Origin: Candidatus Daviesbacteria bacterium
GTDB taxonomy: Bacteria > Patescibacteriota > Microgenomatia > Daviesbacterales > UBA10151
Length of the DNA: 64,000 nucleotides
Direction of reading: 5' to 3'
Assembly (NCBI GenBank): GCA_016187025.1
Contig: JACPKM010000004.1
Span: forward strand, 228,887-292,886
Shown here: positions 7,720 to 56,475 of the stretch, in pieces
Layout: every line of letters starts with the position of its first letter
Numbering within the stretch: position 1 is the first letter of the stretch
Position numbers and translations under genes: made by a program
The notes under the pieces: generated by a model
Database searches by the model: none
The model's input: the letters and a program-made list of their open reading frames with translations, nothing else
What the model was told of the DNA's origin: nothing

Positions 7720-8239
7720 AAATTCATCACAAAGCGGCCAGAGCTTAATTGAACTTATTATAGTTATTATGCTGGGAGTTTTAATTGTGGGGGCCCTGAC
7801 TTTTGCCACAATTGCCTCATTGAGAAATTCCCAGCTTGCAAAAACCCAATCCCAGGCTACAAAACTGGCTCAGGAGGGATTGGAAGCTGTCAGAAGGATC
7901 AGGGATGCTGATAAAAGGGTAACCTACACCTATGTTCCCAGCAGCGGAACCTCTACAACGACTGATGAATTTAGTGATTTATGGTCAGTCCCCTGCCCTT
8001 CAACCGGCAAGTGCTATTTTATTCTATCAAGTTCAAATACTGTTCTTCAGGAAGGGGGTTCAAGTAGCTATGAAGATATTTCAGGGAGGTTTACAAGGAG
8101 GTTTACAAGGCAGGTGATAATAGAAGATGGAAAAAGTACCGGAGTGGAAAAACTGGTGACGGTTTTGGTCAAATGGACTGATTTTGCCGGTGAACATGAA
8201 TCCAAGGTAACAACAATTCTAAGAAATAGAGATCTGTAA
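7709..8239 (+). CDS. Pilin-like minor pilin (atypical +1 residue)
   Basis: SQSG-QSLIELIIVIMLGVLIVGAL: class III-like signal with Gln instead of Phe at +1. Overlaps previous gene by 11 nt (operonic). Confidence 0.5.
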   Translation: MSTKNSSQSGQSLIELIIVIMLGVLIVGALTFATIASLRNSQLAKTQSQATKLAQEGLEAVRRIRDADKRVTYTYVPSSGTSTTTDEFSDLWSVPCPSTGKCYFILSSSNTVLQEGGSSSYEDISGRFTRRFTRQVIIEDGKSTGVEKLVTVLVKWTDFAGEHESKVTTILRNRDL

Positions 8240-8241
8240 AA

Positions 8242-8871
8242 ATGCAAAAAATATTAAATAAAAAGGGGTTTACACTTGTTGAAATGCTGGTGGTTATTGC
8301 CATACTGGGTATTTTTGGTTTAATGATGAGTGTTATATATATCCGTTCTTTAAAGGGAAGTTATAAATCCGAAGTTCTTTCTGCAATTAAAAGAAACGGA
8401 CAGCAGGTTTTGGAGGTAATGGATAAAACAATCCGTAATGCTGATAATATAGTTTGTGTAAATAATGCTTTCACTACTAATGATAGGACTTTAAAAGTAA
8501 TTGTTGTAGAGAAAGAAGGAAAATATACCAGATTTAGCTATATCCCCCCTGTTACCTCATCTCCAAAAAGGAACGGTTATATAGCCCAGGATAATTTAGA
8601 CTATGATCCAAATGAGTTACCATCTACTTTATGCGCGGAAAATATTGAGCAGGCATCTTCAACTTATAAAGTATTAACAGACAGCACACCTGCTGCTGGT
8701 TCTGGTTTGAGCGTCTCAGTTACAGATGCAGAAATTACCAGTGACAAATTGGCAGGGTTTAAGGACTTGGTTACCATATCTTTGTCAATTGAAGAAGGGG
8801 TTTCAATTTCATCTGATTTGGCAGGAGAAATTAGTCCGGAGACATTCCAAACAACCATTCAGTTGAGGTAA
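8242..8871 (+). CDS. Type IV pilin/pseudopilin
   Basis: NKKG-FTLVEMLVVIAILGIFG prepilin N-terminus. Confidence 0.65.
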   Translation: MQKILNKKGFTLVEMLVVIAILGIFGLMMSVIYIRSLKGSYKSEVLSAIKRNGQQVLEVMDKTIRNADNIVCVNNAFTTNDRTLKVIVVEKEGKYTRFSYIPPVTSSPKRNGYIAQDNLDYDPNELPSTLCAENIEQASSTYKVLTDSTPAAGSGLSVSVTDAEITSDKLAGFKDLVTISLSIEEGVSISSDLAGEISPETFQTTIQLR

Positions 8872-40689: not shown

Positions 40690-41628
<939 letters not shown>

Positions 41629-41630
<2 letters not shown>

Positions 41631-41690
41631 GTTGTAGTGGGTAGTGAGTAGGCTGTAGTTGATTACTACCACCTACAACCTAAAACCTAC
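41629..41690 (+). promoter_or_regulatory. Intergenic imperfect hairpin between atpE and atpF
   Basis: GGTTGTAGTGGGTAGT...ACTACCACCTACAACC imperfect inverted repeat spanning the atpE stop. Contains a 24-nt exact copy of recG nt 19389-19412. Confidence 0.35.
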
Positions 41691-41702
41691 AAACTAATTT
41701 TT

Positions 41703-42197
41703 ATGGATATTTTAAGCCAGTTTGGAGTCCAACCAGTACTTTTGGCTGCGCAAGTGGTCAATTTTTTAATACTTCTTTTTATTTTAAAGAGGTTTTTGTA
41801 TAAACCTGTATTAAAGGTATTAGATGAAAGAAGAAAAAGAGTTGAAGAGAGTTTAAAAAACGCTGAAGAAATTGAAAAGAAATTATTAGAAACTGAAGAA
41901 GCCAAAAATAAAATTTTGGAAAAGGCCTCTTTAGATGTCCAAAAAATGTTGGATGAAACAAAGAAAGAAATTGAGGTGATGAAGGAGGAAGGTAAGGTAC
42001 AATCAGAGCAGATGGCAGCTCAAATAATTAAAAAAGGCCAGGAAGAAGCCCGGGCAGCTGTCGAAAAAATGGAACAGGAATTGATGAGTAAACTAGGAGA
42101 TATTGTGGCACTCGGTATGGAAAAAGTGACAGGAAAGGTTTTAAAAACATCGGATCAAAAAGAAATTATAGAAAAGACAGTTAGAGGTATGTCATGA
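41703..42197 (+). CDS. atpF: ATP synthase Fo subunit b
   Basis: N-terminal TM helix then long charged coiled-coil (EE/KK-rich). Operon position. Confidence 0.75.
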   Translation: MDILSQFGVQPVLLAAQVVNFLILLFILKRFLYKPVLKVLDERRKRVEESLKNAEEIEKKLLETEEAKNKILEKASLDVQKMLDETKKEIEVMKEEGKVQSEQMAAQIIKKGQEEARAAVEKMEQELMSKLGDIVALGMEKVTGKVLKTSDQKEIIEKTVRGMS

Positions 42198-42607
42198 AGA
42201 AGGATAAACAATTACAAAAGTTAATTAAAAAGCTGGTAGACTTAAGTTTTAAAGACGGAAAAATAGTGGAAAATCAAGTTATAAAATCCATTAAAAGTGT
42301 AAAATCTGCTCCAAAACCTCAAGCTATTTGGGCTTTGTCTGAATACCTAAAACAGTTAAAAAGAAAAGAAAGACAGTTTACTATGTATATTGAGTCAGCC
42401 ATCCCCCTTTCCCCCATTCAAGTCATGAAAATGAAAAGGATCGTTGAAAAAAAGGCAAAAATTACCAAAGTGTTAGTAAATATTAATCCTGAGATTTTGG
42501 GTGGATTTAAGTTAAGGTTAGGGGATGAAATTTGGGATGAATCATTGGTAGGTAAGATCCAACAGGTAAAGGAGGTAATCCATGGCAGATCTAATAAATC
42601 AAATTGA
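42194..42607 (+). CDS. atpH: ATP synthase F1 subunit delta (short form)
   Basis: Position between atpF and atpA, overlapping both. 137 aa (shorter than typical ~175 aa). Confidence 0.55.
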
Positions 42608-44102
42608 GTCGGAAATAAAAGGCTTAAAACTAAAAGCTGTCAGACAAAATGTAGGAAAGGTTACTGAAGTTGGTGACGGAGTGGCCCGTATTGAAGGACT
42701 CTCTGATGTTTTGGCCTCAGAAATGATTGATTTTGGTGGCGGGGTTTTCGGCTTGGCTCTTAATTTGGAAGAGTACAACGTTGGTGCTGTAGTGTTGGGG
42801 GATTTTACCAAGATTAAAGAAGGTGATGAAGTTAAAACAACCGGAAAAGTTTTACAAGTGCCTGTGGGGGATGCTTTAATCGGCCGGGTGGTTGATGCTT
42901 TGGGTAATCCGATTGACGGTAAAGGGCCAATCAAGACAAAAACCTCTTATCCTGTGGAAAAGATTGCACCCGGAGTTATCACCAGACAATCTGTTACCAC
43001 CCCACTTCAGACCGGAATTAAAGCCATAGATGCACTTATCCCTATTGGTAGAGGGCAAAGAGAGTTAATTATTGGTGATCGTGGCACCGGGAAAACTACC
43101 ATAGCAATCGACACCATCATTAACCAAAAAGACGTGGTTTGCATTTATGTAGCGATCGGTCAAAAAACCTCCAAAGTGGCACAGCTTGTTGCAAAGCTGG
43201 AAGAAGCCGGAGCTATGGACCATACTATAATTGTTGCAGCCACAGCCTCTGATCCTGTGACCATGCAATATATTGCCCCCTACTCCGGTGTGGCTATGGG
43301 CGAGTATTTTATGGACCAGGGAAAAGATGCTTTGATTATCTACGATGATCTGTCAAAGCATGCCTGGGCATACCGGCAGATGTCGCTACTTTTAAGGAGG
43401 CCTTCCGGACGTGAGGCATATCCGGGAGATGTGTTTTATCTTCACTCCAGGCTGTTAGAGCGGGCTGCCAGGCTGAATAAAGATTATGGTGGAGGATCTT
43501 TGACAGCTTTACCTATTATTGAAACTCAAGCAGGTGATGTGTCTGCTTACATTCCTACAAATGTTATTTCTATTACTGACGGGCAGATTTATCTGGAGAC
43601 AGACTTGTTTTTTGCCGGGATTAGACCGGCACTAAATGTGGGATTATCTGTTTCCAGGGTTGGTGGTGCTGCCCAAACTAAAGCTATGAAATCTGTGGCA
43701 GGAAGGTTAAAGCTTGATTTAGCCCAATTTAGAGAGCTAGCAGCTTTTGCCCAATTTGCCTCAGATTTAGATCCAGGAACAAAACAACAGATAGAGAGAG
43801 GAAAAAGGATCACAGAGGTATTAAAACAACCTCCCTACTCCCCTGTCCCAGTTGAAGAACAGGTAGTAGTACTTTGGGCTGTGACTAATGGATATTTAGA
43901 TGAGGTGGAAATAGAAAGGGTTAAGGAATTTGAGCAAAGATATATACAACACTTAAAACTGAGAAATAAGCAAAGCTTGCCATCTAAAGATGGTAAAAAA
44001 CTTTTAAGTGAGTTAGCAGAGAAAAAGGTTTTGGATGAAGGAATGGTTAAGGAATTGGAAAAAACTACTAAGGAGTTTACAAAAACCTATGGCAAGTACT
44101 AG
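42582..44102 (+). CDS. atpA: ATP synthase F1 subunit alpha
   Basis: P-loop GDRGTGKT, ...[42 protein letters not shown] alpha-subunit signature. Confidence 0.9.
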
Positions 44103-44928
44103 AGAACTAAGACGCAGAATAAGATCTGTCAAAAATACCAGCCAGATTACCAAAGCCATGCAGATGGTGGCGGCGACTAAAATGAGAAGAGCCCAAAACC
44201 AGGCTGTAAACGGCAGGCCTTATTCGGGAAATTTAATAGAATCACTTTCCAGATTACTTCCCAGGATTAACCCTGAGGATCATCTGTTACTTTCCGGAGA
44301 CGGTTCCCAAACTGCTGGAGTGGTAGTTTTGTCTACAGATAAAGGTCTGGTTGGAGCATTAAATACCAATATTGTCAGATCTCTAATGTCTGCTAATTTT
44401 CCAACAAAGACATTGTTTTACACAATCGGTAAAAAAGGTAGAAGTTTTGTGGCCAGAACCGGAAAGGATTTAAAAGCTGATTTTGAAAATACTGATGCTA
44501 TAACTTTCAGACAAGCTAAACAGCTGGCTAAGTTGTTAATTGATTCGTTTATGGCTGGTGAGATCGGAGAGGCCTATGTAATTTATCCTCACTTTGTGTC
44601 TACTTTAAGACAGGAAGCAACAAAAGTGAAGGTGTTGCCAATAGAAGCTGCAGAACTAAAAATTAGCAACGGAGAATTTTTGATAGAACCTAATCCTGAT
44701 GAGCTATTGGATGAGCTTTTAACCCATTTTGTAGAGATCAAGATTTATCAGGCGCTTTTGGAAACTAAAGCTTCTGAACATTCTGCCAGGATGATTGCCA
44801 TGAAAAATGCCACAGACAATGCAAAGGAGTTGATTGAAGATCTGCAGTTAACATATAATCAGACCCGCCAGGATGCGATAACCAAAGAAATTTTAGAAAT
44901 AGCAACAGCAGCAGTAGCAATGGAATAA
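44089..44928 (+). CDS. atpG: ATP synthase F1 subunit gamma
   Basis: [36 protein letters not shown] canonical gamma N-terminus. Start set at internal Met, overlapping atpA by 14 nt. Confidence 0.85.
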
Positions 44929-46299
<1,371 letters not shown>

Positions 46300-46402
46300 G
46301 ACTTCTTAAATTTCCAATTTCTAATTTTTAATTTTCAGTGAGTTTTCAACGATTAAATTTTAAAAGCCTGTACCTAGTCTAATTTAGTGTCAAGTAGAGA
46401 TA

Positions 46403-46810
46403 TTATAAAGATTCGTCAGGTTGCTCTAGCCTTATACCTGTAGCAATCAGTGAGCGTACTAAAGCATCATGAGTTAGGTCAACACCTTGACCGAGTGAAA
46501 ATTGTACCTGTTCAATAACTGGTTTGTCGTCTACCCAGTGGGCAATACAGGATGATGTGGCAAGAGTAATGTTTTGTTGGAGAATCATCAAGACCATAAC
46601 CCTGGGTAGTCTTGTATTTGGAAAATGTAGTACAGGCATGGTAGTGATAACTCCGTCATTGATATGTCTGGTTTCTGGTACTCTATCTGTGTTAAAACCA
46701 AATGCCACCATCTCCTTTGGCGTCATATGACTACGATAAACAAAGGCACGGTATACTCCAGTCCAGGCATCGATTGCTTCCTGTTGTGAAGTTGGTTGTT
46801 CTGCTGACAT
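46403..46810 (-). CDS. Hypothetical protein (first gene of accessory insertion)
   Basis: 135-aa ORF, noticeably GC-richer codons than neighbours. No motif recognised. Confidence 0.3.
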   Translation of the reverse strand: MSAEQPTSQQEAIDAWTGVYRAFVYRSHMTPKEMVAFGFNTDRVPETRHINDGVITTMPVLHFPNTRLPRVMVLMILQQNITLATSSCIAHWVDDKPVIEQVQFSLGQGVDLTHDALVRSLIATGIRLEQPDESL

Positions 46811-46879
46811 ATCGGCAAATTTTACAAGATTATAGGATTAAAATCAATTTATCCTAATCTGATTAGGTTTCAAATGGAG

Positions 46880-47104
46880 TTATTTGACAAGTTTCTCAAG
46901 TTCTCCTTTACTTAAATCAGCTTGTCTGAGGATACTACGAAAGGTGCCTAAGGCTATTTCTTTGTGATTTGGAACAATAACAACTAGAGTTGCACCTGGC
47001 TTATTTTTTACTAGCTTGATATGGCTACCCCTTTGACTAATCTCAGAAAAACCAGCTCTTTTTAAAGCTGACAACACTTGTTTCGCTGAGTATAACTTTG
47101 GCAT
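46880..47104 (-). CDS. hicA: HicA-like mRNA interferase toxin
   Basis: 74 aa: KQVLSALKRAGFSEISQRGSHIKL...VVIVPNHKEIALGTFRSILRQADL matches HicA (GSH motif, dsRBD-like). Confidence 0.7.
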   Translation of the reverse strand: MPKLYSAKQVLSALKRAGFSEISQRGSHIKLVKNKPGATLVVIVPNHKEIALGTFRSILRQADLSKGELEKLVK

Positions 47105-47143
47105 AACACCACAAGCATATCAGATAATTAGGTCATTTATAAG

Positions 47144-47356
47144 TTAACTGAAGGAAATTGTGAAATCCTGAATTTTTGGTTTTTTAATAGGTACAACCTC
47201 TGCTTTTTTGTTGTCTTCGAAGTATAATTCGACAGCCTCTTTTAGATTTCTTAAAGCCTCTTTTTCAGTTTTGCCTTGAGAAGCTACCTCTATCTCTAGA
47301 GCCTTAGCCACAAACCATTTATTTTCTTTCCAAATTACTGAATGAATCTGTTTCAT
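47144..47356 (-). CDS. hicB: HicB-like antitoxin (short form)
   Basis: 70 aa: WFVAKALEIEVASQGKTEKEALRNLKEAVELYFED resembles HicB N-terminal domain. Immediately upstream of hicA. Confidence 0.6.
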   Translation of the reverse strand: MKQIHSVIWKENKWFVAKALEIEVASQGKTEKEALRNLKEAVELYFEDNKKAEVVPIKKPKIQDFTISFS

Positions 47357-47477
47357 AAAATTATTCTAGCATAATAGATTTAAGAAAGATGTATGAAGTT
47401 TGCGCCTAATCTGATTTGGCGTCAAGGTACCTTTTTAAACTGAAATTCCCTAAGATTATTTATGCTAATATGAGGAT

Positions 47478-47702
47478 ATGGTTTTGGGCGCTGTTAATTC
47501 TAAAAATGGTGTGAAGGTTAGATTGACTGATGAGCGGTGGAACCATATTATAACCTCTCATTTAGAGATTAATCCTCAAGGGCATAAAAGAATTTTAAAT
47601 GCCATTGGAGATCCGGAAGTTATTTTTAAGGGTGATGTAGGAGAATTGTTAGCAGTTTGTAAATTACCTAGAAAGAGAATGTGGATTGTGGTAGCATATT
47701 AA
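47478..47702 (+). CDS. DUF4258-like small protein (RelE-fold putative toxin)
   Basis: VRLTDERWNHIITSH...ILNAIGDPEVI...GELLAVCKL..KRMWIVVAY follows the DUF4258 pattern (I..T.HA..R........PD.V......LLrVVyee.d.ivVItaY). Confidence 0.5.
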   Translation: MVLGAVNSKNGVKVRLTDERWNHIITSHLEINPQGHKRILNAIGDPEVIFKGDVGELLAVCKLPRKRMWIVVAY

Positions 47703-47783
47703 AGAAGTTACTAAGGAGGATGGATTTATCCTTACAGCCTATTTAACTACAGATAGTAAATGGTTATTTAAAAGGGAGATTTT

Positions 47784-48026
47784 ATGGAGCAAAGAATAGT
47801 AAACTCAGGAAAAATTGCTGCTTCGGATCTAGTCAAACTTGCCCAATTCGGGCAGGATAAATTATTTGTAGATTATGATCAGGAAGCTGATGTTTTATAT
47901 GTCAGCTTTGGTAAACCCCAGAAAGCTGAAGATTCTGTACAAGGTGAGGATGGAATTGTTAGAAGGAAAAAAGTTGGTAAGGTTGTGGGTTTAACTATTC
48001 TCAACGCCAGCCGCTTTAAAAGATAA
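47784..48026 (+). CDS. DUF2283-like small protein (putative antitoxin partner)
   Basis: KLFVDYDQEADVLYVSFGKP...DGIVRRKKVGKVVGLTILNAS matches DUF2283 (YD.eaDvLYi...........g.iVGieIlnaS), a family usually paired with DUF4258. Confidence 0.55.
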   Translation: MEQRIVNSGKIAASDLVKLAQFGQDKLFVDYDQEADVLYVSFGKPQKAEDSVQGEDGIVRRKKVGKVVGLTILNASRFKR

Positions 48027-48087
48027 CTTAAAGCCTGAGGATGCTTTCTATATAGTGCTGATGAAATTAGCAAAGCTGCTGAAGGAT

Positions 48088-48594
48088 TTAGATCTTCTTG
48101 TCTTCTAATAAATTAATTTCAGTTCTTGTATCAATGTAACTCCCTTTTATAAATCCCTCTCCATTTACCCAAAATTTTTCAGGAACTGCTTTATATATTC
48201 TTCTAGGAAATTGATCTGTAAGTTTTTTTTCTTCTCCCTCTGCAGGTTTTTGGTTAGTTCTTTTAGATAAGTAATTCAGAGCTTTCTTTATTTCCTCATC
48301 CTCCTCTACCATGTAAGCCTTAGCTTGAATGTAAACTCCCTCCCCTGTACCTTCAGGTGCAGTTGAGTCATAAATTACTATAAAAACCTGATTATTTTCT
48401 GCAATATTTTTGGAGTGAATATTCTCCTTCCAAGATGCCCAATAAAAATTGTAATCTTCATCATAAGCTGAATAAACCGGTGAGTTCCAAGGAATATTTT
48501 CCTTGGAAGAAGTGGCAATTGTTATATATATTATTTGCTCAATAATCTCTTTTGCTCTTTTTACCAGATGATCACTCATATCTGAAGTTTGCAC
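48088..48594 (-). CDS. Pyridoxamine 5'-phosphate oxidase-like (split-barrel FMN-binding) protein
   Basis: Size and N-terminal block IIYITIATSSKENIPWNSPVYSAYDEDYNFYWAS resemble PNPOx-like/general-stress-26 proteins. No cofactor motif verified. Confidence 0.4.
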   Translation of the reverse strand: MQTSDMSDHLVKRAKEIIEQIIYITIATSSKENIPWNSPVYSAYDEDYNFYWASWKENIHSKNIAENNQVFIVIYDSTAPEGTGEGVYIQAKAYMVEEDEEIKKALNYLSKRTNQKPAEGEEKKLTDQFPRRIYKAVPEKFWVNGEGFIKGSYIDTRTEINLLEDKKI

Positions 48595-48610
48595 TTTTGG
48601 AAGGAAAAAT

Positions 48611-49033
48611 TCAACCCTTATTCTTAAAATATTCCGGAAAGGTCCAGGATAAAGTTTTTGGATGGATTATACCTATTCCCCTAAAGCTTTTAAGTTGGAT
48701 TAAATCCTGATCCAATGTAACTATTAAGTCAGTTTTGCCTGATAAGGCGCATTCCAGAATCTTATTATCTGACGGATCGCGGGTTATCACCGACACTGTT
48801 TCAGTAATTGTTACAATTTCAGTAATAGTTCTAATTTTGTTAAGCAGTTGATTAACTTCCTCTTGAGGTAATTTGAGCTTATTTTTTAGCTTACTAGTGA
48901 GTTCTAACAGAATCTCTTCGGAGGTGATAATAGTAAATATTTTGTTTTTTGATATTATGTCAATAATTTCTGCTGAGAATGTATTTTTAATGGCTGCGGC
49001 AAAGTAAATATTAGTGTCAAAAACTATTTTCAT
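48611..49033 (-). CDS. PIN-domain ribonuclease toxin (VapC-like)
   Basis: MKIVFDTNIYFAAAI (Asp4), ...ITSEEILLEL..., VTLDQDLIQL acidic residues in PIN spacing. Overlaps upstream RHH gene by 4 nt. Confidence 0.7.
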   Translation of the reverse strand: MKIVFDTNIYFAAAIKNTFSAEIIDIISKNKIFTIITSEEILLELTSKLKNKLKLPQEEVNQLLNKIRTITEIVTITETVSVITRDPSDNKILECALSGKTDLIVTLDQDLIQLKSFRGIGIIHPKTLSWTFPEYFKNKG

Positions 49034-49251
49034 CCCAAAATTCTCTCAACATCTTCATCTGTTTTGATGTTGAATTTTTTGGCTATTTCTGCACCCCAAG
49101 CTCTAATTTTGAACCAATCTCTATCAAATTCGTATTTTCTAAAAGCCTCTCTTAAAAGCTCGCTTTGAGTCCTGTTTTCCTCTTTAGCTACTTTTTTAAT
49201 TCTTTTTGCCATAGCTTGCGGAACTGAAATGTTTATAATACTTCTTTGCAT
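49030..49251 (-). CDS. Ribbon-helix-helix (CopG-like) antitoxin
   Basis: MQRSIINISVPQAMAKRIKKVAKEENRTQSELLREAF: beta-strand + two helices of RHH. Start set at internal Met because the promoter lies inside the longer ORF. Confidence 0.55.
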   Translation of the reverse strand: MQRSIINISVPQAMAKRIKKVAKEENRTQSELLREAFRKYEFDRDWFKIRAWGAEIAKKFNIKTDEDVERILG

Positions 49252-49261
49252 ATTGTAACAA

Positions 49262-49290
49262 ATTGTATTACAGAACCAACTGCCTGTCAA
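49262..49290 (-). promoter_or_regulatory. sigma70-like promoter (TTGACA-17-TACAAT, minus strand) for RHH-PIN operon, with flanking CTGCCTG direct repeats
   Basis: On minus strand TTGACA (49285-49290) - 17 nt - TACAAT (49262-49267), ~10 nt before antitoxin ATG. CTGCCTG copies at 49280-49286 and 49301-49307 could be operator half-sites. Confidence 0.4.
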
Positions 49291-49299
49291 CAAGCCTTC

Positions 49300-49339
49300 C
49301 CTGCCTGCCCTCCTAACGGCGGGTAAACCGGCAGGCAGG
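49300..49339 (-). promoter_or_regulatory. GC-rich 10-bp-stem hairpin between hypothetical gene and RHH-PIN promoter
   Basis: CCTGCCTGCC (49300-49309) / GGCAGGCAGG (49330-49339) perfect inverted repeat, 20-nt loop. No U-tract, so terminator vs operator is unresolved. Confidence 0.35.
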
Positions 49340-49357
49340 TACATGAAGGGCACAATA

Positions 49358-49849
49358 CTACCTACAACCGCCTTTTTCTACTAAGTCTATATCTGCTCTT
49401 GTGTAGGTGCTATCTTCGGGAAGATTAGGATTTGTGTGCAAAGTACCTGCTAGCAAATCACGTTTTAATTTGTTTCTTAAATCCTTTATTCTACCCCGTC
49501 CATATGCTATTAAGGTAACTTCAACTAAGTCGCCTTGGTCAAACCTTTGCCTATTTCTATCTGCTTGCTCGCCTCTAGAAAGTACACTCGCATACCCTCC
49601 GCTCTCTGTTAAGGCGAGCCTTAACCTTAACTGAGGTTCAATTGATTTTTCTTGACCATTTGCACCGCTGACTATTCGTGCAGGTACGTAAAGTTCATTA
49701 ACTATACAGGCTTTTAAGGGATGACCCATAACATAATTTTGTTCCATTGGTGTGCTGCATGCAGCAAGCAGGACCGTTTCCGCGAAAGCTAATGCTCTAA
49801 AAGTGTTACGAAAAGAAGGTAATCTGCCTGCTAGGCTCTCAGTTCTCAT
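49358..49849 (-). CDS. Hypothetical protein (GC-richer; weak resemblance to RES-type toxin N-terminus only)
   Basis: 163-aa ORF, AGRLPSFRNTFRALAFAETVLL. No confident family assignment. Confidence 0.3.
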   Translation of the reverse strand: MRTESLAGRLPSFRNTFRALAFAETVLLAACSTPMEQNYVMGHPLKACIVNELYVPARIVSGANGQEKSIEPQLRLRLALTESGGYASVLSRGEQADRNRQRFDQGDLVEVTLIAYGRGRIKDLRNKLKRDLLAGTLHTNPNLPEDSTYTRADIDLVEKGGCR

Positions 49850-50011
49850 TTAAGCTGAGTATACAATAGAGCCATGTACAAAACAAACTATAGGGTCTTA
49901 GCGAGTGATCTATTTAGATTTCTAGAGGAGGTCAACATATATAATTCACATGCAGTTTTCTTACTGAAATCTGATTAAATTATAAACTGGTTTGGATAAT
50001 ATACGTTACTT

Positions 50012-50473
50012 ATGAACAAGAAGATAGAGGGTACTTTTTTAAAGATTATTTCTGCTATCGCGCTTTTTATAATCTTTTTTGAGTTTACTATAGTCTTCTT
50101 AACCCCTCAAGCAAATGCTCAGTGTGCAGCAGGTACACCTGCTAATTTAACAGCTACTCCCGGTACCACCCCTGGCACAATGATGCTGAGATGGAATCAG
50201 GCAACCAGTGCCAACCGCTATGCCCTGGTTTTTGGCCATTCCAGTAGAAATTACAATATGGGGTCTTTAAATATAGATGGCGGGTCTGATACAACGTATA
50301 TGGTCACCCATCTTGTTCCAGGAAACAGGTATTTTTTCCAGGTATGGGCATTTTGTGATAACAACGGTCCAGCCACAGCTTCTAATGAAGTTTCTGCTAT
50401 GGTTCCTGGAACTGCTATTACAACAACCTCCACAGGTCCGATTGCTCAAGGACAAACTACAGTAGATCCATAG
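50012..50473 (+). CDS. Secreted protein with fibronectin type III-like domain
   Basis: N-terminal TM/signal (IISAIALFIIFFEFTIVFL...ANAQ), then PANLTATPGTTPGTMMLRWNQ...YMVTHLVPGNRYFFQVWA FN3-like beta pattern. Confidence 0.45.
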   Translation: MNKKIEGTFLKIISAIALFIIFFEFTIVFLTPQANAQCAAGTPANLTATPGTTPGTMMLRWNQATSANRYALVFGHSSRNYNMGSLNIDGGSDTTYMVTHLVPGNRYFFQVWAFCDNNGPATASNEVSAMVPGTAITTTSTGPIAQGQTTVDP

Positions 50474-50483
50474 CACTAAAGTG

Positions 50484-51224
50484 TTAAGGATTGTTTACTA
50501 TACCTACAAGTTTGACTTCAGGTTCTTTCTTGTCAGCATTTACCTCATAAACAGGTAAGCCTGTTGCTAAGTTTTCCAAAGTGGCATTAAGCTGCATATC
50601 TGAATATCTTTTAAACTCTTCAAATTTCAGGCCTTTTATTTGAAAGTTTTTCCATAATTTTTTTGTATACTCTTCATCCCGGGTTTTATCATAAACAAAA
50701 TACATTTGATCGGATTTAGAATCGTAATGGTTAACAGTTTTTTTACTACCAGTTATTACTAATACCCCCTTTTCTTTATGTGATCCTTCAAGTTCCACCA
50801 TGCTGTAGTATTTTCTATCTTCAAGTTTTAGTCTTAAATAAGTTAAAGCGAGTTTTACATCTTGTGGATTAACCTTGTACATCTGGGCTGTTTTAGGATC
50901 TGCAGCTTTGGCTATATGCCCACAGCCTATCGAAGCCAGATCATCAGGGTTGGCATGAGAGTCTGTGTGCATATTAAAAGTAATCCCCATTCTCTCAACA
51001 GCCTCGACTGCCTTATCTACTACCTTACCAATTGTTAATTTTAGCCTTTTTCTTAAAGCAAGAAGAGTCATAATCCCTCTAAAATTTCCTCCTGGACGGG
51101 CAAGCATCCCAGAGTATTTAGCAGGATATCTTCCATCCACACATATAAATCCCGTTTTAGAAGGGACAGTGTTTTGCCTAACATAGTCTATAACCTCATT
51201 AATATTAAAGTTCACCTTTGTCAT
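50484..51224 (-). CDS. Hypothetical protein with CxDxR and CGH motifs
   Basis: 246-aa ORF. FICVDGRYP and HTDSHANPDDLASIGCGH could form a metal site. No family assigned. Confidence 0.3.
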   Translation of the reverse strand: MTKVNFNINEVIDYVRQNTVPSKTGFICVDGRYPAKYSGMLARPGGNFRGIMTLLALRKRLKLTIGKVVDKAVEAVERMGITFNMHTDSHANPDDLASIGCGHIAKAADPKTAQMYKVNPQDVKLALTYLRLKLEDRKYYSMVELEGSHKEKGVLVITGSKKTVNHYDSKSDQMYFVYDKTRDEEYTKKLWKNFQIKGLKFEEFKRYSDMQLNATLENLATGLPVYEVNADKKEPEVKLVGIVNNP

Positions 51225-51330
51225 AATCTAATATTATATACCAGATTACAAGTTGACTTATAGTGACAAAATACAATATATGGTGGTAGAATACCTACTT
51301 GCACAACAAGTGCTTTTTTATTGGATAAAT

Positions 51331-52086
51331 ATGTCTGGTGAACATACAGCGAAAACAGAGATGCTACGAGCGATAAGCTGGGCAGAAACAGGGGGAAATG
51401 ATCCATTAAGAGGTCTAGGAACCTTTCAAAGAAGATTCGATTCTCTACCGGATAGAGGTAGGGCATTCTCTTTACAAGATCAAATTCTGCGATGTATCGA
51501 CGAAGGTACTGTGGGAGGTGTACATTTAGCAGGTTCGGGGTTGTTTTATCGGGATAAGATCGGATCAGATTTTAGAGGTAGAGTCCATGGAGTATATAGC
51601 CACGAAGGTTGTGGGGCAGCCAAGCTTTTTGCCCAAACACATGGCATTCAAGTAGAGAATACAGACGGAGTTGGAGACCAAGAAGCAAAAGAAATAGCTG
51701 GAATTTTACAAGTGCCCTATCTTGGGAGAATTCCAGCTGAAGGAATGATGAGACCTAGAGAAATTCATGTTGCAAGGGCAGTTTACTATGTAGGAAGCAG
51801 AGAATTTGACCCAGCAGCAATCAATCTTCCTCCTGGATTTGTCATTAACAGGGAGATGATATCTGATGCCAGCTATGCACTCGCAGAAGTAGAGTTAGCA
51901 ACTCAGATCGCTCAAGGGGAACATGGTTTCGGAGATAGCTTTACCGGAGAAACCCCACTTTTTATAGTAGCAGTTTCTGATAGAAAGACACACTCAGTTC
52001 CTTTAGAAAGATTGGCGGAAGAATTAACTGATTTATCTAAGAGGCTTCGTGCAGTAGAGTTAGATACTATACAGTTTTCAGCTTAG
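51331..52086 (+). CDS. Hypothetical protein (GC-richer) with HEGCG motif
   Basis: Start set at ATG 51331 (listed ORF 51253 overlaps divergent neighbour). YSHEGCGAAKLF motif. No family assigned. Confidence 0.3.
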   Translation: MSGEHTAKTEMLRAISWAETGGNDPLRGLGTFQRRFDSLPDRGRAFSLQDQILRCIDEGTVGGVHLAGSGLFYRDKIGSDFRGRVHGVYSHEGCGAAKLFAQTHGIQVENTDGVGDQEAKEIAGILQVPYLGRIPAEGMMRPREIHVARAVYYVGSREFDPAAINLPPGFVINREMISDASYALAEVELATQIAQGEHGFGDSFTGETPLFIVAVSDRKTHSVPLERLAEELTDLSKRLRAVELDTIQFSA

Positions 52087-52633
52087 TTTTCAATACATCT
52101 ATTATTTCTGGAAATTCTCTTTTTACTCTGGGGTAGCCAAAATGTCCTTGATCCTTAAACTCATAATACTGTGTAGTTAGCTTTTCATGAATATACCTTG
52201 CTTCTTCTATTGGTATGAATGGATCATCAGCTGAATGAAATTGCACAATCCATTTTTGGTTATGTTTAATTTTTTTCCAATTCCAAACTTTATCATAATA
52301 TCCACTAATTTTTTCTGACTTCAATCCTAAATCTGTATAGCATGCTGATACTAAGATAGACCCTAAGATTTGATGTTTTTCAGCATATCTCAAAGCAGCT
52401 ACTGCCCCTGATGAATGGCCTATCAATATAGTATTCTCATCAGCTTCAAGCTTTTTTAAAAAAGGTAACCAATATTTTGCCCGGGCCTTTATTGGATCAG
52501 GAAAATTTTGGGAAATAACTTGCAAATTTAGTTTTTCTAATTTTCTTTTTAAATACGGGAACCATCCTTTGGGATCATTTACATCTCCCCCACCGTTTCC
52601 GTGGACAAATATAACCTTAATAAACTTGCTCAT
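52067..52633 (-). CDS. YdeN/RBBP9-like serine hydrolase (alpha/beta fold)
   Basis: IFVHGNGGG..., nucleophile elbow LIGHSSGAV, ...FHSADDPFIP...GHF (Ser-Asp-His spacing typical of the PF06821 family). 188 aa. Confidence 0.55.
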   Translation of the reverse strand: MSKFIKVIFVHGNGGGDVNDPKGWFPYLKRKLEKLNLQVISQNFPDPIKARAKYWLPFLKKLEADENTILIGHSSGAVAALRYAEKHQILGSILVSACYTDLGLKSEKISGYYDKVWNWKKIKHNQKWIVQFHSADDPFIPIEEARYIHEKLTTQYYEFKDQGHFGYPRVKREFPEIIDVLKTKLKTV

Positions 52634-53102
52634 CTATAAAATATTCCAAATCTTCTCTTATGCCCCGGTGATCAATCAAGTCTAGCGCAGCATCAGGCGT
52701 GACCCATTTATATTCTGTATGCTCATCAGAAAGGGTAACATTATCATCGCTGCCTTCAATTTTTGCCCAATAAACTACCCCAACCACCTCATTATCTGCA
52801 TCCTTCTCGCCCCTCATAAAAGAAAATACCTTAAGTGGTTTGATAATCTCTATCTCCAACCGTGTTTCTTCCCGGACTTCCCTTTTTAAGCCTTCAACTG
52901 GGTTTTCAAACTGTTTAATTCTCCCCATTGGATACTCCCAAATCTCAGGTTTATAGTCGTTGTCGTTTGATCTTTTAACCAAAAGTATTTGACCTAGCTC
53001 ATTTTCTATAATTGCACCCATTGCAACCATAAATCTTCCTTCGTCTACATTTGACATGTCGTAATTTTCCCATCTTGTAGGTATAATATCAACTATGAGC
53101 AC
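52617..53102 (-). CDS. Nudix hydrolase
   Basis: Nudix box GRIKQFENPVEGLKREVREETRLEI. Confidence 0.65.
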   Translation of the reverse strand: MLIVDIIPTRWENYDMSNVDEGRFMVAMGAIIENELGQILLVKRSNDNDYKPEIWEYPMGRIKQFENPVEGLKREVREETRLEIEIIKPLKVFSFMRGEKDADNEVVGVVYWAKIEGSDDNVTLSDEHTEYKWVTPDAALDLIDHRGIREDLEYFIDEQVY

Positions 53103-53505
53103 TCTTCAGCTAAAAATAGTGACTCCAGAAAAAGAGGTATTTAGTGATTTAGTCAATCAAGTGAGCCTTCCTTCTTCTGAGGGTGAGCTTGGGATACTTC
53201 CCCACCATGCTGCATTGATGGCAAAGCTTGTTCCAGGTGAGTTAAAGATAAAAAGAGGAGATAAAACAGATGTCCTAGCTGTTGGCGGAGGCTTTTTGCA
53301 GATGGCGGACAATACTTTGACTATTATGACTGATCTGGCTGTTGAGGAAAAAGACATAGATGAAGAGGTGGTGGAAGAAGCTAAGAAACGTGCCGAACAA
53401 GCTTTAGAGCAGACATTATCTGCTGAGGAATATGCAGAAACTTTGGCTATCCTAGAAAAATCCCTTGCTCAGCTAAAGATAAAAAGAAGGCACCGTGTCA
53501 GATAA
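53095..53505 (+). CDS. atpC: ATP synthase F1 subunit epsilon (separated from atpD by ~6.8 kb)
   Basis: LKIVTPEKEVFSDLVNQVSLPSSEGELGILPHHAALMAKLVPGELKIK canonical epsilon N-terminal beta-sandwich, C-terminal helical hairpin. Confidence 0.85.
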   Translation: MSTLQLKIVTPEKEVFSDLVNQVSLPSSEGELGILPHHAALMAKLVPGELKIKRGDKTDVLAVGGGFLQMADNTLTIMTDLAVEEKDIDEEVVEEAKKRAEQALEQTLSAEEYAETLAILEKSLAQLKIKRRHRVR

Positions 53506-53761
53506 ATTATTACTTGACTTGTCTAATATATTGTAGCCATAATAATATTAATGGCTAAAAAAGATTATCACTCCGGATCCTTGTCAGTAACAATTAACCA
53601 ATTGCTCGGAAAAATAGAATTTAGGAAAAGTAGTTACTTTGCTTTTGCTGCATCGTTTCTTCTTACATTTATGGCAGTAGTTTTATCCCGCCTTATCCAT
53701 TAACTTTTTTTACTTCCTGAATTATTAGCTTGCTTTCTTGTTTTGCGTGTGTAATTAGAAG

Positions 53762-53791
53762 TTGGATCGTGGGGACAAATTTAGGTATAAT
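53762..53791 (+). promoter_or_regulatory. Promoter candidate for tRNA-Tyr (TTGGAT-18-TATAAT)
   Basis: TATAAT at 53786-53791, TTGGAT at 53762-53767. tRNA 5' end 14 nt downstream. Confidence 0.4.
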
Positions 53792-53804
53792 ATTTAGGTT
53801 GTAA

Positions 53805-53886
53805 CCGGAGGTGGCAGAGTAGTCAATTGCACCAGACTGTAAATCTGGCGGGTTTCCCTTCGAAGGTGCGAATCCTTCCCTCCGGA
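53805..53886 (+). tRNA. tRNA-Tyr (anticodon GTA), long variable arm, CCA not encoded
   Basis: Hand-folded: acceptor CCGGAGG/CCTCCGG, D-stem GCAG/TTGC, anticodon stem CCAGA/TCTGG with loop CTGTAAA (GTA), 13-nt variable arm, T-stem GAAGG/CCTTC with unusual T-loop TGCGAAT, discriminator A. Confidence 0.7.
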
Positions 53887-53913
53887 CACCGGATTAGTTA
53901 TAATCTATTAATT

Positions 53914-56475
53914 ATGGTACAACATTCCTGGAAAGCCAGGAAAGAGTTTTCAAGAGTTTGGAAGTTTAAATTCCTCTCTAATCTTTCCACCAGTCTTTTA
54001 ATAGTAATCCTTGTTGGGATATTAAGCTTTTTTGGAATTATTGTATTTTTTGCTACCCAAATTCCTTCTCCTGATAATCTGTCAAGCAGATCTGTTGCCA
54101 AAGCAACCAAAATCTTTGATAAAGATGGAGAGCTTTTATACGATATTTACCAAGACGAAAACCGTACACCTATCAAACTTGATGAAATTCCAGATTATGT
54201 TACAGAGGCAACAATTGCCATTGAAGATAAAGACTTTTATAAACATCCTGGTTTTTCCATTGTTGGTATAGCCAGAGCTTCTTTTGACTCGCTTTTGAAC
54301 AGGAGAATAGAAGGCGGAGGTTCTACGCTAACCCAGCAGCTAGTTAAAAACGCCCTGCTTTCCGGAGAAAGAACATTAACCCGTAAGCTAAAAGAGTTTA
54401 TTTTGGCAATTCAGGTTGAAAGAGCTTATTCTAAGGACCAGATATTGGAAATGTATTTAAATGAGATTGCGTATGGTGGAACAGCCTATGGAATAGAAGC
54501 TGCAGCTAATTTATATTTTGGCAAAAGTGCAAAAGATTTAAATTTGGCAGAAGCTGCACTTTTGGCAGGTTTACCACAAAGGCCGTCTGTTTACTCCCCG
54601 TATGGGACAAAACCAGAACTTTCCCGTGTCAGGCAAAAAGAGGTGTTAAGAAGAATGGCTGAGGACGGATATATTTCCCATGCGCAAGCAGATGAGGCAG
54701 CAAAACAAGATTTGTCTTATAGAACCTCTCAGAGTGAACAGGGTTTTAAAGCGCCCCACTTTGTTTTATATGTTAAACAAAAATTAATTGAGCAGTTTGG
54801 AGATAAACTGGTTGAACAGGGAGGTTTAAGGGTAACAACAACCCTTGATTTTAAGCTTCAAGAAAAGGTTCAAGAAATTGTCAAAGAAGAAATTGAAAAA
54901 ATAAAAAGTAATAAAGTGGGAAATGGTGCAGCTGTGGTAATGGATGCAAAAACAGGACAGATTTTGGCGATGGTAGGTAGTAAAGATTATTTTGGCGAGT
55001 CTGAACCTGAAGAATGTGTTGAGGGTTTGTCCTGTGTTTTTGAACCTAATGTTAATGCAGCTATTTCTTTAAGGCAGCCAGGATCTGCCACCAAGCCTAT
55101 TACCTATGCTAAGTCTTTTGAAAAGGGATATACCGCAAACTCCACTATTTTGGATGTTAAAACAGAATTTCCCGGAGGAGCAGATAACCCTAACTATATT
55201 CCGGTAAACTATGATGGCCAGTATCATGGTCCTGTTCAGGTAAGGTACGCCTTGGGAAACTCATATAATATTCCAGCTGTCAAAATGCTTGCTTTGGTAG
55301 GAGTAAAAGATGTCATGGATTTGGCATATAGAATGGGAGTGAGTTCCTGGGAGCCATCAACAGAAAATGTGAACTCGGTTGGACTCAGTTTGACATTAGG
55401 AGGAAGAGAGTTAAGACTTTTGGATTTGGTTTCTGCTTATAGTGTTTTTGCAAGTAAAGGTGAACAGCATGATCCGATATCTATACTCAAAGTAACAGAC
55501 CACACAGGTAAGGTTTTATTTGAATATAAACCAACTGAGGGAAGAAAGGTGCTAGATTCAGGTATAGCCTACATCATCTCTGATATTTTATCAGATAACG
55601 GTGCAAGAACTGCAGCTTTTGGCTCCAACTCTATTTTAAATATTCCCGGAAAAACAGTAGCAGTCAAAACTGGTACTACTGATGAAAAAAGAGATAATTG
55701 GACAGTAGGATATACCCCGTCTATTGTAGTGGGTGTTTGGGTTGGTAACAATGATAATACCCCACTCGATCCAAAAATTGCCTCAGGTGTAACTGGTGCT
55801 TCCCCTATCTGGAATAAAGTCATCAGGGAGGCAATAAAAGACAAACCTAATGAAAGTTTTGAAAAGCCCTCGCATGTAGCGCAAGTTGAGGTGGATGGAC
55901 TGATGCCAGGAAAACCCCATGGCGGCTCTCCGACCAGGAAAGAATATTTCATTGGTGGTACAGAACCAAATAGTGAATCATCTGCATATCAGCGGGTAAA
56001 AGTCTGTAGGAGTAATCCTCACAGACTGGCAAATGATGGTGAAGAGGCTGATGATAAAGATACGGTAGTTTTAAAAGAAGATGACCCAACAGGTGCTAAT
56101 AAATGGCAAAAAGGGATTGATGATTGGGTTTTGACTGCTACTGATGCCAGGTTGGTTGGTGCTACAAAAGGATGCTCTGGTATTCCTGGATTTAGTGCAG
56201 GGACAGGTGGAGCTATAGAAATAGTAAATGTGGGAAATGGGGCAAATGTACCAAGAGTGTTTGATGTTTTAGCAAAAACCAATTCTCCAGCTGGTGTTAA
56301 AAAGGTTACTTGGAGTGTTGATGGAGCTCAGAAGTCCACTCAAACCTCAGAACCATTTGCTCTGCATGTGGAGTTTCCACCAGGAGATAAAGGTTCGCAC
56401 ACAATTACTGTGACACTTGAGGATAATAATGGAGCCCAACACTCAACCTCAATTGGAGTAACAGCCTCTCTTTAA
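53914..56475 (+). CDS. Class A penicillin-binding protein (bifunctional glycosyltransferase/transpeptidase, PBP1A-like) with extra C-terminal domain
   Basis: N-terminal TM anchor, GT51 motifs (EDKDFYKHPGF, GGSTLTQQLVKN, RKLKEFILAIQVE), transpeptidase SATKP (Ser-x-x-Lys), SYN, KTGTT. ~200-aa C-terminal extension. Start set at ATG 53914 because the longer ORF overlaps the tRNA. Confidence 0.85.
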   Translation: MVQHSWKARKEFSRVWKFKFLSNLSTSLLIVILVGILSFFGIIVFFATQIPSPDNLSSRSVAKATKIFDKDGELLYDIYQDENRTPIKLDEIPDYVTEATIAIEDKDFYKHPGFSIVGIARASFDSLLNRRIEGGGSTLTQQLVKNALLSGERTLTRKLKEFILAIQVERAYSKDQILEMYLNEIAYGGTAYGIEAAANLYFGKSAKDLNLAEAALLAGLPQRPSVYSPYGTKPELSRVRQKEVLRRMAEDGYISHAQADEAAKQDLSYRTSQSEQGFKAPHFVLYVKQKLIEQFGDKLVEQGGLRVTTTLDFKLQEKVQEIVKEEIEKIKSNKVGNGAAVVMDAKTGQILAMVGSKDYFGESEPEECVEGLSCVFEPNVNAAISLRQPGSATKPITYAKSFEKGYTANSTILDVKTEFPGGADNPNYIPVNYDGQYHGPVQVRYALGNSYNIPAVKMLALVGVKDVMDLAYRMGVSSWEPSTENVNSVGLSLTLGGRELRLLDLVSAYSVFASKGEQHDPISILKVTDHTGKVLFEYKPTEGRKVLDSGIAYIISDILSDNGARTAAFGSNSILNIPGKTVAVKTGTTDEKRDNWTVGYTPSIVVGVWVGNNDNTPLDPKIASGVTGASPIWNKVIREAIKDKPNESFEKPSHVAQVEVDGLMPGKPHGGSPTRKEYFIGGTEPNSESSAYQRVKVCRSNPHRLANDGEEADDKDTVVLKEDDPTGANKWQKGIDDWVLTATDARLVGATKGCSGIPGFSAGTGGAIEIVNVGNGANVPRVFDVLAKTNSPAGVKKVTWSVDGAQKSTQTSEPFALHVEFPPGDKGSHTITVTLEDNNGAQHSTSIGVTASL

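Follow-up and report, generated by a model that had tools for sequence, protein, structure and literature searches.

The genes for the bacterial F1Fo ATP synthase are canonically arranged in one operon, atp(I)BEFHAGDC, of which the unc operon of E. coli is the type. To our knowledge the genes for the beta and epsilon subunits, atpD and atpC, lie next to each other almost everywhere, and this was checked here in five outgroup loci. Sets divided among more than one transcription unit are known, such as atp1 and atp2 of cyanobacteria and chloroplasts or atpHAGDC and atpIBEXF of alphaproteobacteria, and in these either the division runs between Fo and F1 or the beta and epsilon genes stay paired. 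The atpB–atpE pair of chloroplasts overlaps (PMC3241655). The subject of the present analysis is a stretch of 64,000 nucleotides (the window; contig JACPKM010000004.1, positions 228,887 to 292,886) from the metagenome-assembled genome of a Candidatus Daviesbacteria bacterium, an uncultured groundwater member of the Patescibacteria, or candidate phyla radiation (CPR). Its atp genes would likewise form more than one transcription unit, but the break falls exactly between beta and epsilon, unlike that of the known split sets. The interval between atpD and atpC is probably an old, clade-wide split of the operon in Candidatus Daviesbacteria rather than a recently inserted island. A universal operon is thus rearranged clade-wide, and unexpectedly the same company recurs in the gap: genes for proteins resembling carbonic anhydrases (CAs), whose functional link to the ATPase is plausible.

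All eight F1Fo subunit genes (a, c, b, delta, alpha, gamma, beta, and epsilon) are present in the window. Seven of them, atpBEFHAGD, run on the plus strand from 40690 to 46299 in the canonical B-E-F-H-A-G-D order and, like the canonical operon, have short or overlapping internal junctions and Shine-Dalgarno-like motifs; no atpI is seen upstream of atpB. Three of these genes (atpB, atpE, and atpF) were assigned through relatives, the products of one of which, locus L033, carry Pfam ATP-synt_A, ATP-synt_C, and ATP-synt_B. About 40 Daviesbacteria loci have the cluster in the same order, at 53–95% identity. The atpC gene is intact, with both the beta-sandwich and the helical domain, and is 55–85% identical to atpC of Daviesbacteria loci; the placement of the organism agrees with the relatives of its AtpC, and the NCBI locus tags HYW42_04680 and HYW42_04685 are exact matches to two of the gap genes. 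Unlike its canonical counterpart, this atpC is set apart from the cluster by 6.8 kb of genes on both strands, appears to have its own promoter, and lacks a Shine-Dalgarno motif. An earlier reading of the letters and open reading frames (ORFs), the sequence-only reading, had likewise placed atpBEFHAGD in one contiguous run to 46299 and the start of atpC at 53095, in agreement with the ORF list and Pfam. It had counted 12 intervening genes on both strands; both strands are indeed used, but the interval of 6,795 bp holds 14 ORFs, and the eight genes do not form a single contiguous polycistron.

That the contig wrongly joins atpD and atpC regions of different places or organisms might be suspected of a metagenome-assembled genome, but can hardly be the explanation here. 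The same gene order comes out of two Logan assemblies, built independently from other sequencing runs (L119, 8.2 kb, and L120, 4.2 kb), and L119 spans atpC through all 14 gap genes to atpD; on these grounds misassembly was rejected. About 40 other assemblies have the same kind of split, and the composition of the region is uniform.

The split extends through the clade as sampled. A scan of a genome collection with AtpC returned 24 Daviesbacteria loci and some outgroups; 20 of the Daviesbacteria loci carry both atpD and atpC, and in all 20 the two are separated, by 0.4–6 kb. In the outgroups the distance is 36–49 bp (Acidobacteriota and Clostridia) or 265 bp (another Patescibacterium). When metagenome loci were added and duplicates removed, 39 of 40 distinct Daviesbacteria loci proved to be split, with gaps of 0.4–6.8 kb (median 3.3 kb), that of the window being the largest. 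The single unsplit locus is L033, in which atpD and atpC overlap; it is basal within Daviesbacteria in a neighbour-joining tree of AtpA+AtpD. The split presumably had a single origin.

The sequence-only reading had taken the interval for an accessory insertion between adjacent atpD and atpC. As in genomic islands and toxin–antitoxin or defence hotspots, gene content varies among relatives and toxin–antitoxin modules are present. Two such modules are clear in the window, the Nudix gene matches a PADLOC candidate family, most of the cargo has no counterpart in relatives' gaps, the gap is the largest of the 40, and a tRNA-Tyr gene lies 300 bp beyond atpC. Against this, none of the usual marks of an integrative island was found. 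Pfam identifies no integrase, transposase, or recombinase among the 14 gap ORFs, and no integrase or transposase is among the 25 families listed of the 46 matched by 112 ORFs in relatives' gaps. A repeat search of 45800–54200 revealed no att-like repeats bracketing 46300 and 53094, the longest repeat families being of 17–34 nt at 65–94% identity, and the tRNA gene does not lie at a gap boundary. Unlike an island, the interval is bordered by genes for two subunits of the same enzyme and keeps a core that is conserved and not mobile. Composition is native: gap genes have a G+C content (GC) of 0.378, compared with 0.390 outside (p 0.45), and a third-position value (GC3) of 0.300, compared with 0.319 (p 0.17); the tetranucleotide distance from the window average is 0.008–0.010 in segments overlapping the gap and 0.009–0.019 elsewhere. 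In these measures the gap matches the rest of the window, its tetranucleotide distance being among the lowest there, and the supposedly GC-richer hypotheticals have the same GC (0.42–0.43) as atpA, atpD, and atpC (0.42–0.43).

Comparison of gene order is equally unfavourable to a recent island. No empty site, of the kind expected if relatives kept atpD immediately followed by atpC, was found among the 40 distinct loci, none of which is of the same genus as the window genome, outside the unsplit L033. Homologs of 6 of the 14 window gap genes occur in relatives' gaps, with positional counterparts of the RHH, 163-residue, and FN3 genes in L001, of the zeta-CA-like and serine hydrolase genes in L035, and of the zeta-CA-like gene in L011 and L012; the remaining genes have no counterpart in any relative's locus. 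Relatives thus have the gap in common with the window, and some of the genes in it, but lack the window's toxin–antitoxin modules and most of its other cargo, so that the refuting condition set by the sequence-only reading, equal gene content of similar composition in relatives, gives a mixed outcome. This argues that the split is old and common while its cargo turns over fast. The atpC promoter is also kept across the clade, which suggests that atpC was autonomous long before the present cargo arrived. Recent insertion of a mobile accessory or defence island is accordingly very improbable, and as a single event it is largely refuted. The idea of a cargo hotspot survives insofar as gene content is highly variable; toxin–antitoxin genes are not its recurrent theme, CA-like genes are. 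The presence of toxin–antitoxin genes inside a conserved operon need not mean a mobile island.

Separate transcription of atpC, which the sequence-only reading had anticipated from a promoter near 53040–53094, is well matched by the region upstream of the gene. The probable start of the divergent Nudix gene at 53057 leaves 37 bp, and these contain a perfect TATAAT. A -10 box, taken as a TATAAT-like hexamer ending 5–10 nt before the start codon, is found in 41 of 46 distinct atpC upstream regions of relatives, where a Shine-Dalgarno-like motif occurs once. The corresponding counts are 0 and 14 for 23 distinct upstream regions of atpA, 0 and 13 for 27 of atpD, and 10 and 4 for 20 of atpB, the first gene of the operon. 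The layout upstream of atpC is the same in relatives whether the preceding gene is divergent or on the same strand. Thus atpC is apparently transcribed from its own promoter, and with the -10 box 7 nt from the start codon its mRNA is probably leaderless. The main atp transcript may possibly end at the hairpin at 46288–46330, over the atpD stop codon. Beta–epsilon adjacency is among the most conserved in bacteria, and a whole sampled CPR clade appears to have broken it, kept it broken, and given epsilon a promoter of its own.

The same spacing recurs elsewhere in the window. A -10-like hexamer lies 6–9 nt before the ATG at 12594, 16973(-), 19818(-), 20720(-), 36797, 46810(-), 47356(-), 49849(-), 51224(-), 53095, 53914, and 62209(-); the genes concerned include the zeta-like gene, hicB, and that of a penicillin-binding protein. 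First genes of this Daviesbacterium may thus as a rule be transcribed without a leader, and atpC fits the pattern of a gene that opens its own unit. A literature search for leaderless mRNAs in Patescibacteria returned nothing.

What fills the gap in relatives is, above all, CA-like genes. Among the 112 ORFs of the Pfam census, Pro_CA_2 (PF20393, putative carbonic anhydrase) was matched 17 times, in 17 of 22 loci and with E values down to 6e-19, CDCA five times, and every other family at most three times. The rarer families are of toxin–antitoxin or defence type (HicA, DUF2283, a DpnII-type restriction enzyme, AbiTii) or housekeeping genes (TypA/BipA, peptide deformylase, DEAD helicase), with an amylase besides. 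In the genome sample, chosen by atpC, a verified CA-like gene stands in the gap in 17 of 20 loci. The Pro_CA_2 gene encodes about 121 residues with invariant beta-CA motifs CxDxR and HxxC, and is usually divergent to atpC at a distance of 14–70 bp. The smallest gaps (380–430 bp) hold it alone, and this minimal form, atpD, Pro_CA_2 on the minus strand, atpC, is seen in L004, L052, L071, and L080. The association also appears from the other side: of 80 metagenome loci picked by the Pro_CA_2 profile, 39 have atpC as well, mostly at 14–70 bp, and another 3 have atpD where the contig ends. Neither an NCBIfam model of Pro_CA_2 nor relevant literature on it was found.

Immediately before atpC, and on its strand, there is often a second gene. 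It belongs to the CDCA family in L001, L010, L011, L047, and L070, among others, to the 277-residue family of the window in L057, and in L007, L022, and L039 it encodes an unclassified protein of 495 residues. This last protein (L007 8493–9980, L022 8508–9986, L039 ~7767, L013 1809–3299) is conserved, carries the motif CIDGR...HGCGA, and is matched by nothing in Pfam, NCBIfam, or PDB-profile searches; it could represent a fifth family of CA-like proteins or else a novel kind of protein. On contigs that carry no atp genes (L064, L065, L067), Pro_CA_2 and a CDCA-family gene lie about 440 bp apart, and the two may form a module of their own. In the gap of L018 the Pro_CA_2 gene is broken into two short ORFs (7907–8095 and 8119–8271); this may be a pseudogene, and if so, the CA-like core is capable of decay.

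Pro_CA_2 is absent from the window, where two larger CA-fold genes take its place. The sequence-only reading had passed over both, at 50484–52086, as hypotheticals and so missed the main recurrent feature of the interval. The two genes are divergent, 28–106 bp apart depending on the start of the second, and mirror the Pro_CA_2|CDCA and zeta-like|CDCA pairs of relatives; the serine hydrolase and Nudix genes separate them from atpC. Comparison of the CA-like families with hhalign gives motif-length matches with probabilities of at most 12%, with the exception of the zeta-like family against a neighbouring CDCA family of relatives (cluster 7; about 50%). Because sequence profiles do not join the families, the link among them rests on fold, and at least four sequence-distinct CA-fold families (Pro_CA_2, CDCA, zeta-like, and beta-like) alternate near the atpD–atpC junction.

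The zeta-like protein at 50484–51224 has 55 homologs, none annotated, with at least 55 members at 90% identity. Residues C28, D30, G31, R32, H86, D88, C101, H149, and E151 are invariant in 34 sequences. Searched against the PDB, the family profile matches only the three repeat sequences of CDCA1 (E 0.009–0.03), and in the alignment to 3bob the elements KCVDGR, H-G-D (H..D), and GCG coincide. An AlphaFold2 model of high predicted local accuracy (pLDDT 95) places CDCA structures in all of the top six positions of a Foldseek search of the PDB (E 2e-6 to 8e-5), and the next match has an E value of 0.25. The protein gives no match to Pfam PF18484, CDCA, at E ≤5 and does not pass the gathering threshold, whereas cluster 7 passes it with 48 bits against a cut-off of 29. 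Homologs of the zeta-like gene adjoin atpC in L035, L011, and L012. On the predicted model the protein is thus zeta-CA-like in fold and metal-ligand motifs without being a CDCA member, and its carbonic anhydrase activity is putative.

CDCA1 of Thalassiosira weissflogii (PDB 3bob, 3boh, 3uk8, 7bez; PF18484) is the closest described protein. The two have the same fold (Foldseek probability 1.0, TM ~0.5), and the Cys-x-Asp-x-Arg, His, and Cys-Gly motifs of CDCA1, whose metal ligands we take to be Cys, His, and Cys, align with those of the zeta-like protein. Identity is about 17%; the zeta-like protein is a single domain, while CDCA1 has three repeats, and its host is a non-photosynthetic CPR bacterium. 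Since CDCA1 also hydrolyses CS2 (PMC8217695), the substrate of the zeta-like protein is not to be assumed.

The family of the protein at 51253–52086 comprises at least 815 clusters at 50% identity, mostly of about 250 residues and all lacking annotation, and C72, D74, E75, H108, and C111 ("CIDEG...HEGCGAA") are invariant in it. The model predicted for the protein (pLDDT 93) has the fold of beta-class carbonic anhydrases. Foldseek finds nothing for it, Pfam gives no match at E ≤5, Pro_CA and Pro_CA_2 included, and no PDB chain is matched by sequence; alignment of the family with Pro_CA_2 by hhalign has a probability of 12% over 28 columns around HE(D/G)CGA. It differs from described beta-class enzymes (the two-lobed enzyme of Porphyridium, 1ddz, and carboxysomal CsoSCA, 8thm) in the replaced Arg of CxDxR and in having no sequence-level match. 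The protein is therefore beta-CA-like in fold, with HxxC, but is not a member of the class at the level of sequence. Homologs stand directly upstream of atpC in L057 and between atpA and atpG in L017 and the unsplit L033, and the latter location is a second, independent entry of the family into the atp operon.

Some members of the beta-like family in Chloroflexota (L118 8001–9398; P0058, P0062, P0064) have a FliL domain at the C-terminus, in surroundings that are not flagellar. The gene of a heavy-metal P-type ATPase lies a few kb from a FliL-bearing member and also adjoins the homolog in L031 and L032. The family may have a membrane or metal connection; the P-type ATPase neighbourhood of such distant homologs was judged too thin to build on.

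These features can be joined in a tentative scheme. A single ancestral event would have put an oppositely oriented CA-like gene between atpD and atpC, leaving two transcription units, atpBEFHAGD and atpC with its own promoter. The region between atpD and the CA-like gene would then have lain outside the polycistron, free to gain and lose genes; since a broken operon is no longer interrupted by insertions, toxin–antitoxin modules and miscellaneous enzymes could collect there. The recurrent core consists of CA-fold genes, mostly Pro_CA_2 divergent to atpC and often a second CA-like gene upstream on the same strand, and in the window of the divergent zeta- and beta-CA-like pair. Around this core cargo turns over fast between species, the window's present set being HicAB, PIN–RHH, the DUF2283 pair, PNPOx, the lipoprotein/FN3 pair, the serine hydrolase, and Nudix.

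Two ideas present themselves for what CA-like proteins might do here. Fermentative CPR cells probably run the ATPase as an ATP-driven proton pump, and a CA-like protein might provide local supply or buffering of H+ and HCO3- at the enzyme. Epsilon is an intrinsic inhibitor of ATP hydrolysis; bicarbonate might modulate the hydrolytic activity of F1, with epsilon dosed separately. That the CA-like proteins serve the ATPase at all is speculative, and we give it a modest chance; the fuller proposal, in which they are working accessories and the inhibitory epsilon is independently dosed through its own leaderless promoter, is unlikely on the evidence at hand. If correct, the CA-like module and the detached atpC would be a lineage-specific regulatory addition to a universal machine, and two unannotated families would gain a first function. 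In any case the neighbourhood offers a guilt-by-association lead for two families so far annotated only as hypothetical, and bears on how reduced, fermentative Patescibacteria run and regulate their ATPase, which should interest specialists in ATP synthase, CPR biology, and carbonic anhydrases. Literature searches on carbonic anhydrase with ATP synthase and CPR, on the ATP synthase of Daviesbacteria, and on a detached atpC returned nothing relevant.

The CA-like genes may instead be a frozen accident: the split is old, the site permissive, and the first arrival has persisted by inertia with no link to the ATPase. This explanation has a substantial chance of being right, though short of an even one. 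It is favoured by the occurrence of the same CA-like families away from atp genes in other lineages, by the stand-alone Pro_CA_2/CDCA pairs, and by the housekeeping genes found in some gaps. Inertia does not readily explain why the slot has taken in at least four CA-fold families of unrelated sequence, which looks like functional replacement under selection, or why the beta-like family entered the operon again between atpA and atpG. Nor does it account for the distance of 14–70 bp at which the CA-like gene stays from atpC, with cargo gathering chiefly on the side of atpD.

Several points tell against the account given here of an old split with a recurrent CA-like core. The tree in which L033 is basal carries no support values, and the promoter of atpC is an inference from sequence. 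Because cargo genes are mostly absent from relatives, individual genes have arrived recently. No enzyme activity is known for any of the CA-like families here; that of the beta-like protein is putative, and although it has HxxC it lacks the Arg of CxDxR (CIDEG, with E75 invariant). The more distant homologs of both the zeta-like and the beta-like protein, outside Daviesbacteria, are not near atp genes, and about 15 Pro_CA_2 loci with long flanks, presumably from other lineages, have no atp genes either. The metagenome sample was picked with Pro_CA_2 and is biased toward CA-containing gaps, which leaves the genome sample of 20 loci as the only unbiased one; two of its loci (L007 and L022) have no CA candidate besides the 495-residue protein, similar by motif and position only.

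Features of the atp region of the window (E values are those of the named Pfam families).
Feature	Position	Strand	Basis or remark
atpB	40690-41409	+	ORF list; homology to relatives' atp genes
atpE	41424-41630	+	ORF list; homology to relatives' atp genes
atpF	41703-42197	+	ORF list; homology to relatives' atp genes
atpH	42194-42607	+	ORF list; Pfam OSCP
atpA	42582-44102	+	ORF list; Pfam ATP-synt_ab
atpG	44035-44928	+	ORF list; Pfam ATP-synt
atpD	44932-46299	+	ORF list; Pfam ATP-synt_ab
Weak hairpin over atpD stop, then T-rich tract	46288-46330	+	terminator-like site 46288-46305, consensus match only
135-aa hypothetical (cargo)	46403-46810	-	TAAAAT 8 nt before ATG
hicA, HicA toxin	46880-47104	-	HicA_toxin 1.3e-17
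hicB, HicB-like antitoxin	47144-47356	-	DUF7387 3.2e-9
74-aa unclassified ORF	47478-47702	+	
DUF2283 protein	47784-48026	+	DUF2283 7e-12
PNPOx-like protein (pyridoxamine 5'-phosphate oxidase fold; cargo)	48088-48594	-	PNPOx_N 1e-11; L119 gene caller gives 163 aa
PIN toxin	48611-49033	-	PIN_3 6.5e-16
RHH antitoxin	49030-49251 or 49030-49353	-	RHH_1 1.5e-8
163-aa protein, lipoprotein-like N-terminus	49358-49849	-	lipobox "LLAAC" read from translation
FN3-domain protein, N-terminal hydrophobic segment, secreted	50012-50473	+	fn3 1.7e-6
Zeta-class (CDCA-like) CA-fold protein, 246 aa	50484-51224	-	HYW42_04680; annotated hypothetical
Beta-CA-fold protein, 277 aa	51253-52086	+	HYW42_04685; uncharacterised family; start 51253, 51280, or 51331
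Alpha/beta serine hydrolase (cargo)	52067-52633	-	Ser_hydrolase, PF06821 5.9e-12
Nudix hydrolase	52617-53057	-	NUDIX 4.7e-19; probable start ATG 53057 (146 aa); L119/L120 gene callers 146 aa
Putative atpC promoter	53082-53094	+	perfect TATAAT 53082-53087, 7 nt, ATG; no Shine-Dalgarno
atpC (epsilon subunit)	53095-53505	+	ATP-synt_DE_N 2.6e-26, ATP-synt_DE 2.4e-6
50-aa ORF directly after atpC, one hydrophobic helix	53551-53703	+	52% over 48 aa at same position in L002
tRNA-Tyr(GTA)	53805-53887	+	ARAGORN, Rfam; conserved anchor beside PBP1 gene

The remaining gap genes are of mixed kinds. Pfam bears out the PNPOx-like, Nudix/hydrolase, and FN3 genes of the sequence-only reading, through PNPOx_N, NUDIX, Ser_hydrolase, and fn3, and five gap ORFs have no Pfam match; NCBIfam gives nothing for any of the gap hypotheticals. 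Of the three type II toxin–antitoxin pairs that had been proposed, HicA–DUF7387 and PIN_3–RHH_1 are indeed adjacent small genes of recognised families, and the PIN and RHH genes overlap by 4 bp. A third pair, made up of the 74-residue ORF and the DUF2283 protein, is only plausible. In relatives the partner of DUF2283 has a weak, below-cutoff match to a PBECR2-like nuclease; the 74-residue ORF has no family match and no detectable relation to that partner. The hicBA genes are not found at the same position in relatives, and HicA is present in two other gaps. In L001, which of the relatives has the atpC closest to that of the window, the contig ends at this position with an RHH fragment. The 163-residue and FN3 genes form a divergent pair with homologs in that position in L001 (80% and 67% identical), and the serine hydrolase has a 72% identical homolog in the same interval of L035. 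On the minus strand the Nudix gene, divergent from atpC, is preceded by TTGATA-17-GAAAAT-6-ATG.

PADLOC candidate families are matched by the Nudix protein (PDC-S07, 5e-17) and weakly by the PNPOx-like protein (PDC-M38B, 1e-4). These are candidate families only, the matches may reflect generic domain similarity, and they were not read as defence. Directly upstream of atpB in L033 (1853–3208) are the gene of a reverse transcriptase (RVT_1) and a MazE/PIN pair, which indicates that toxin–antitoxin cargo also gathers at the other end of the operon.

The 135-residue protein next to atpD has no Pfam, NCBIfam, or PADLOC match and no homolog in any relative's locus. Its gene and hicB are each preceded, about 45–50 bp upstream of the minus-strand start, by a 7+1+7 palindrome, CCTAATC-T-GATTAGG, of which one perfect and one single-mismatch copy stand at 46853–46867 and 47405–47419, the only two of the kind in 64 kb. 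They emerged from a 21-nt repeat family (D1), which reduces to this 15-nt palindrome at the two promoter-proximal sites; by a rough estimate, chance alone would yield about two repeat pairs matching this well in the region. The sites could be a shared operator, for example for HicB.

Beyond atpC, the 50-residue ORF has no family match and may encode a small membrane protein co-transcribed with atpC. Rfam identifies two tRNAs and nothing else over the window. Of 26 relatives' loci scanned, 20 have the tRNA-Tyr gene between atpC and the gene of a class A penicillin-binding protein (PBP1), usually right beside PBP1 and on either strand. The listed TTG-start ORF of PBP1 (53827–56475) overlaps the tRNA gene; its real start is probably the ATG at 53914, preceded by TATAAT and 9 nt. 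Across relatives the interval between atpC and tRNA-Tyr varies from about 40 bp to about 7 kb, and in many it contains three glycosyltransferase genes, none of which occurs anywhere in the window. Thus a second variable interval lies on the other side of atpC.

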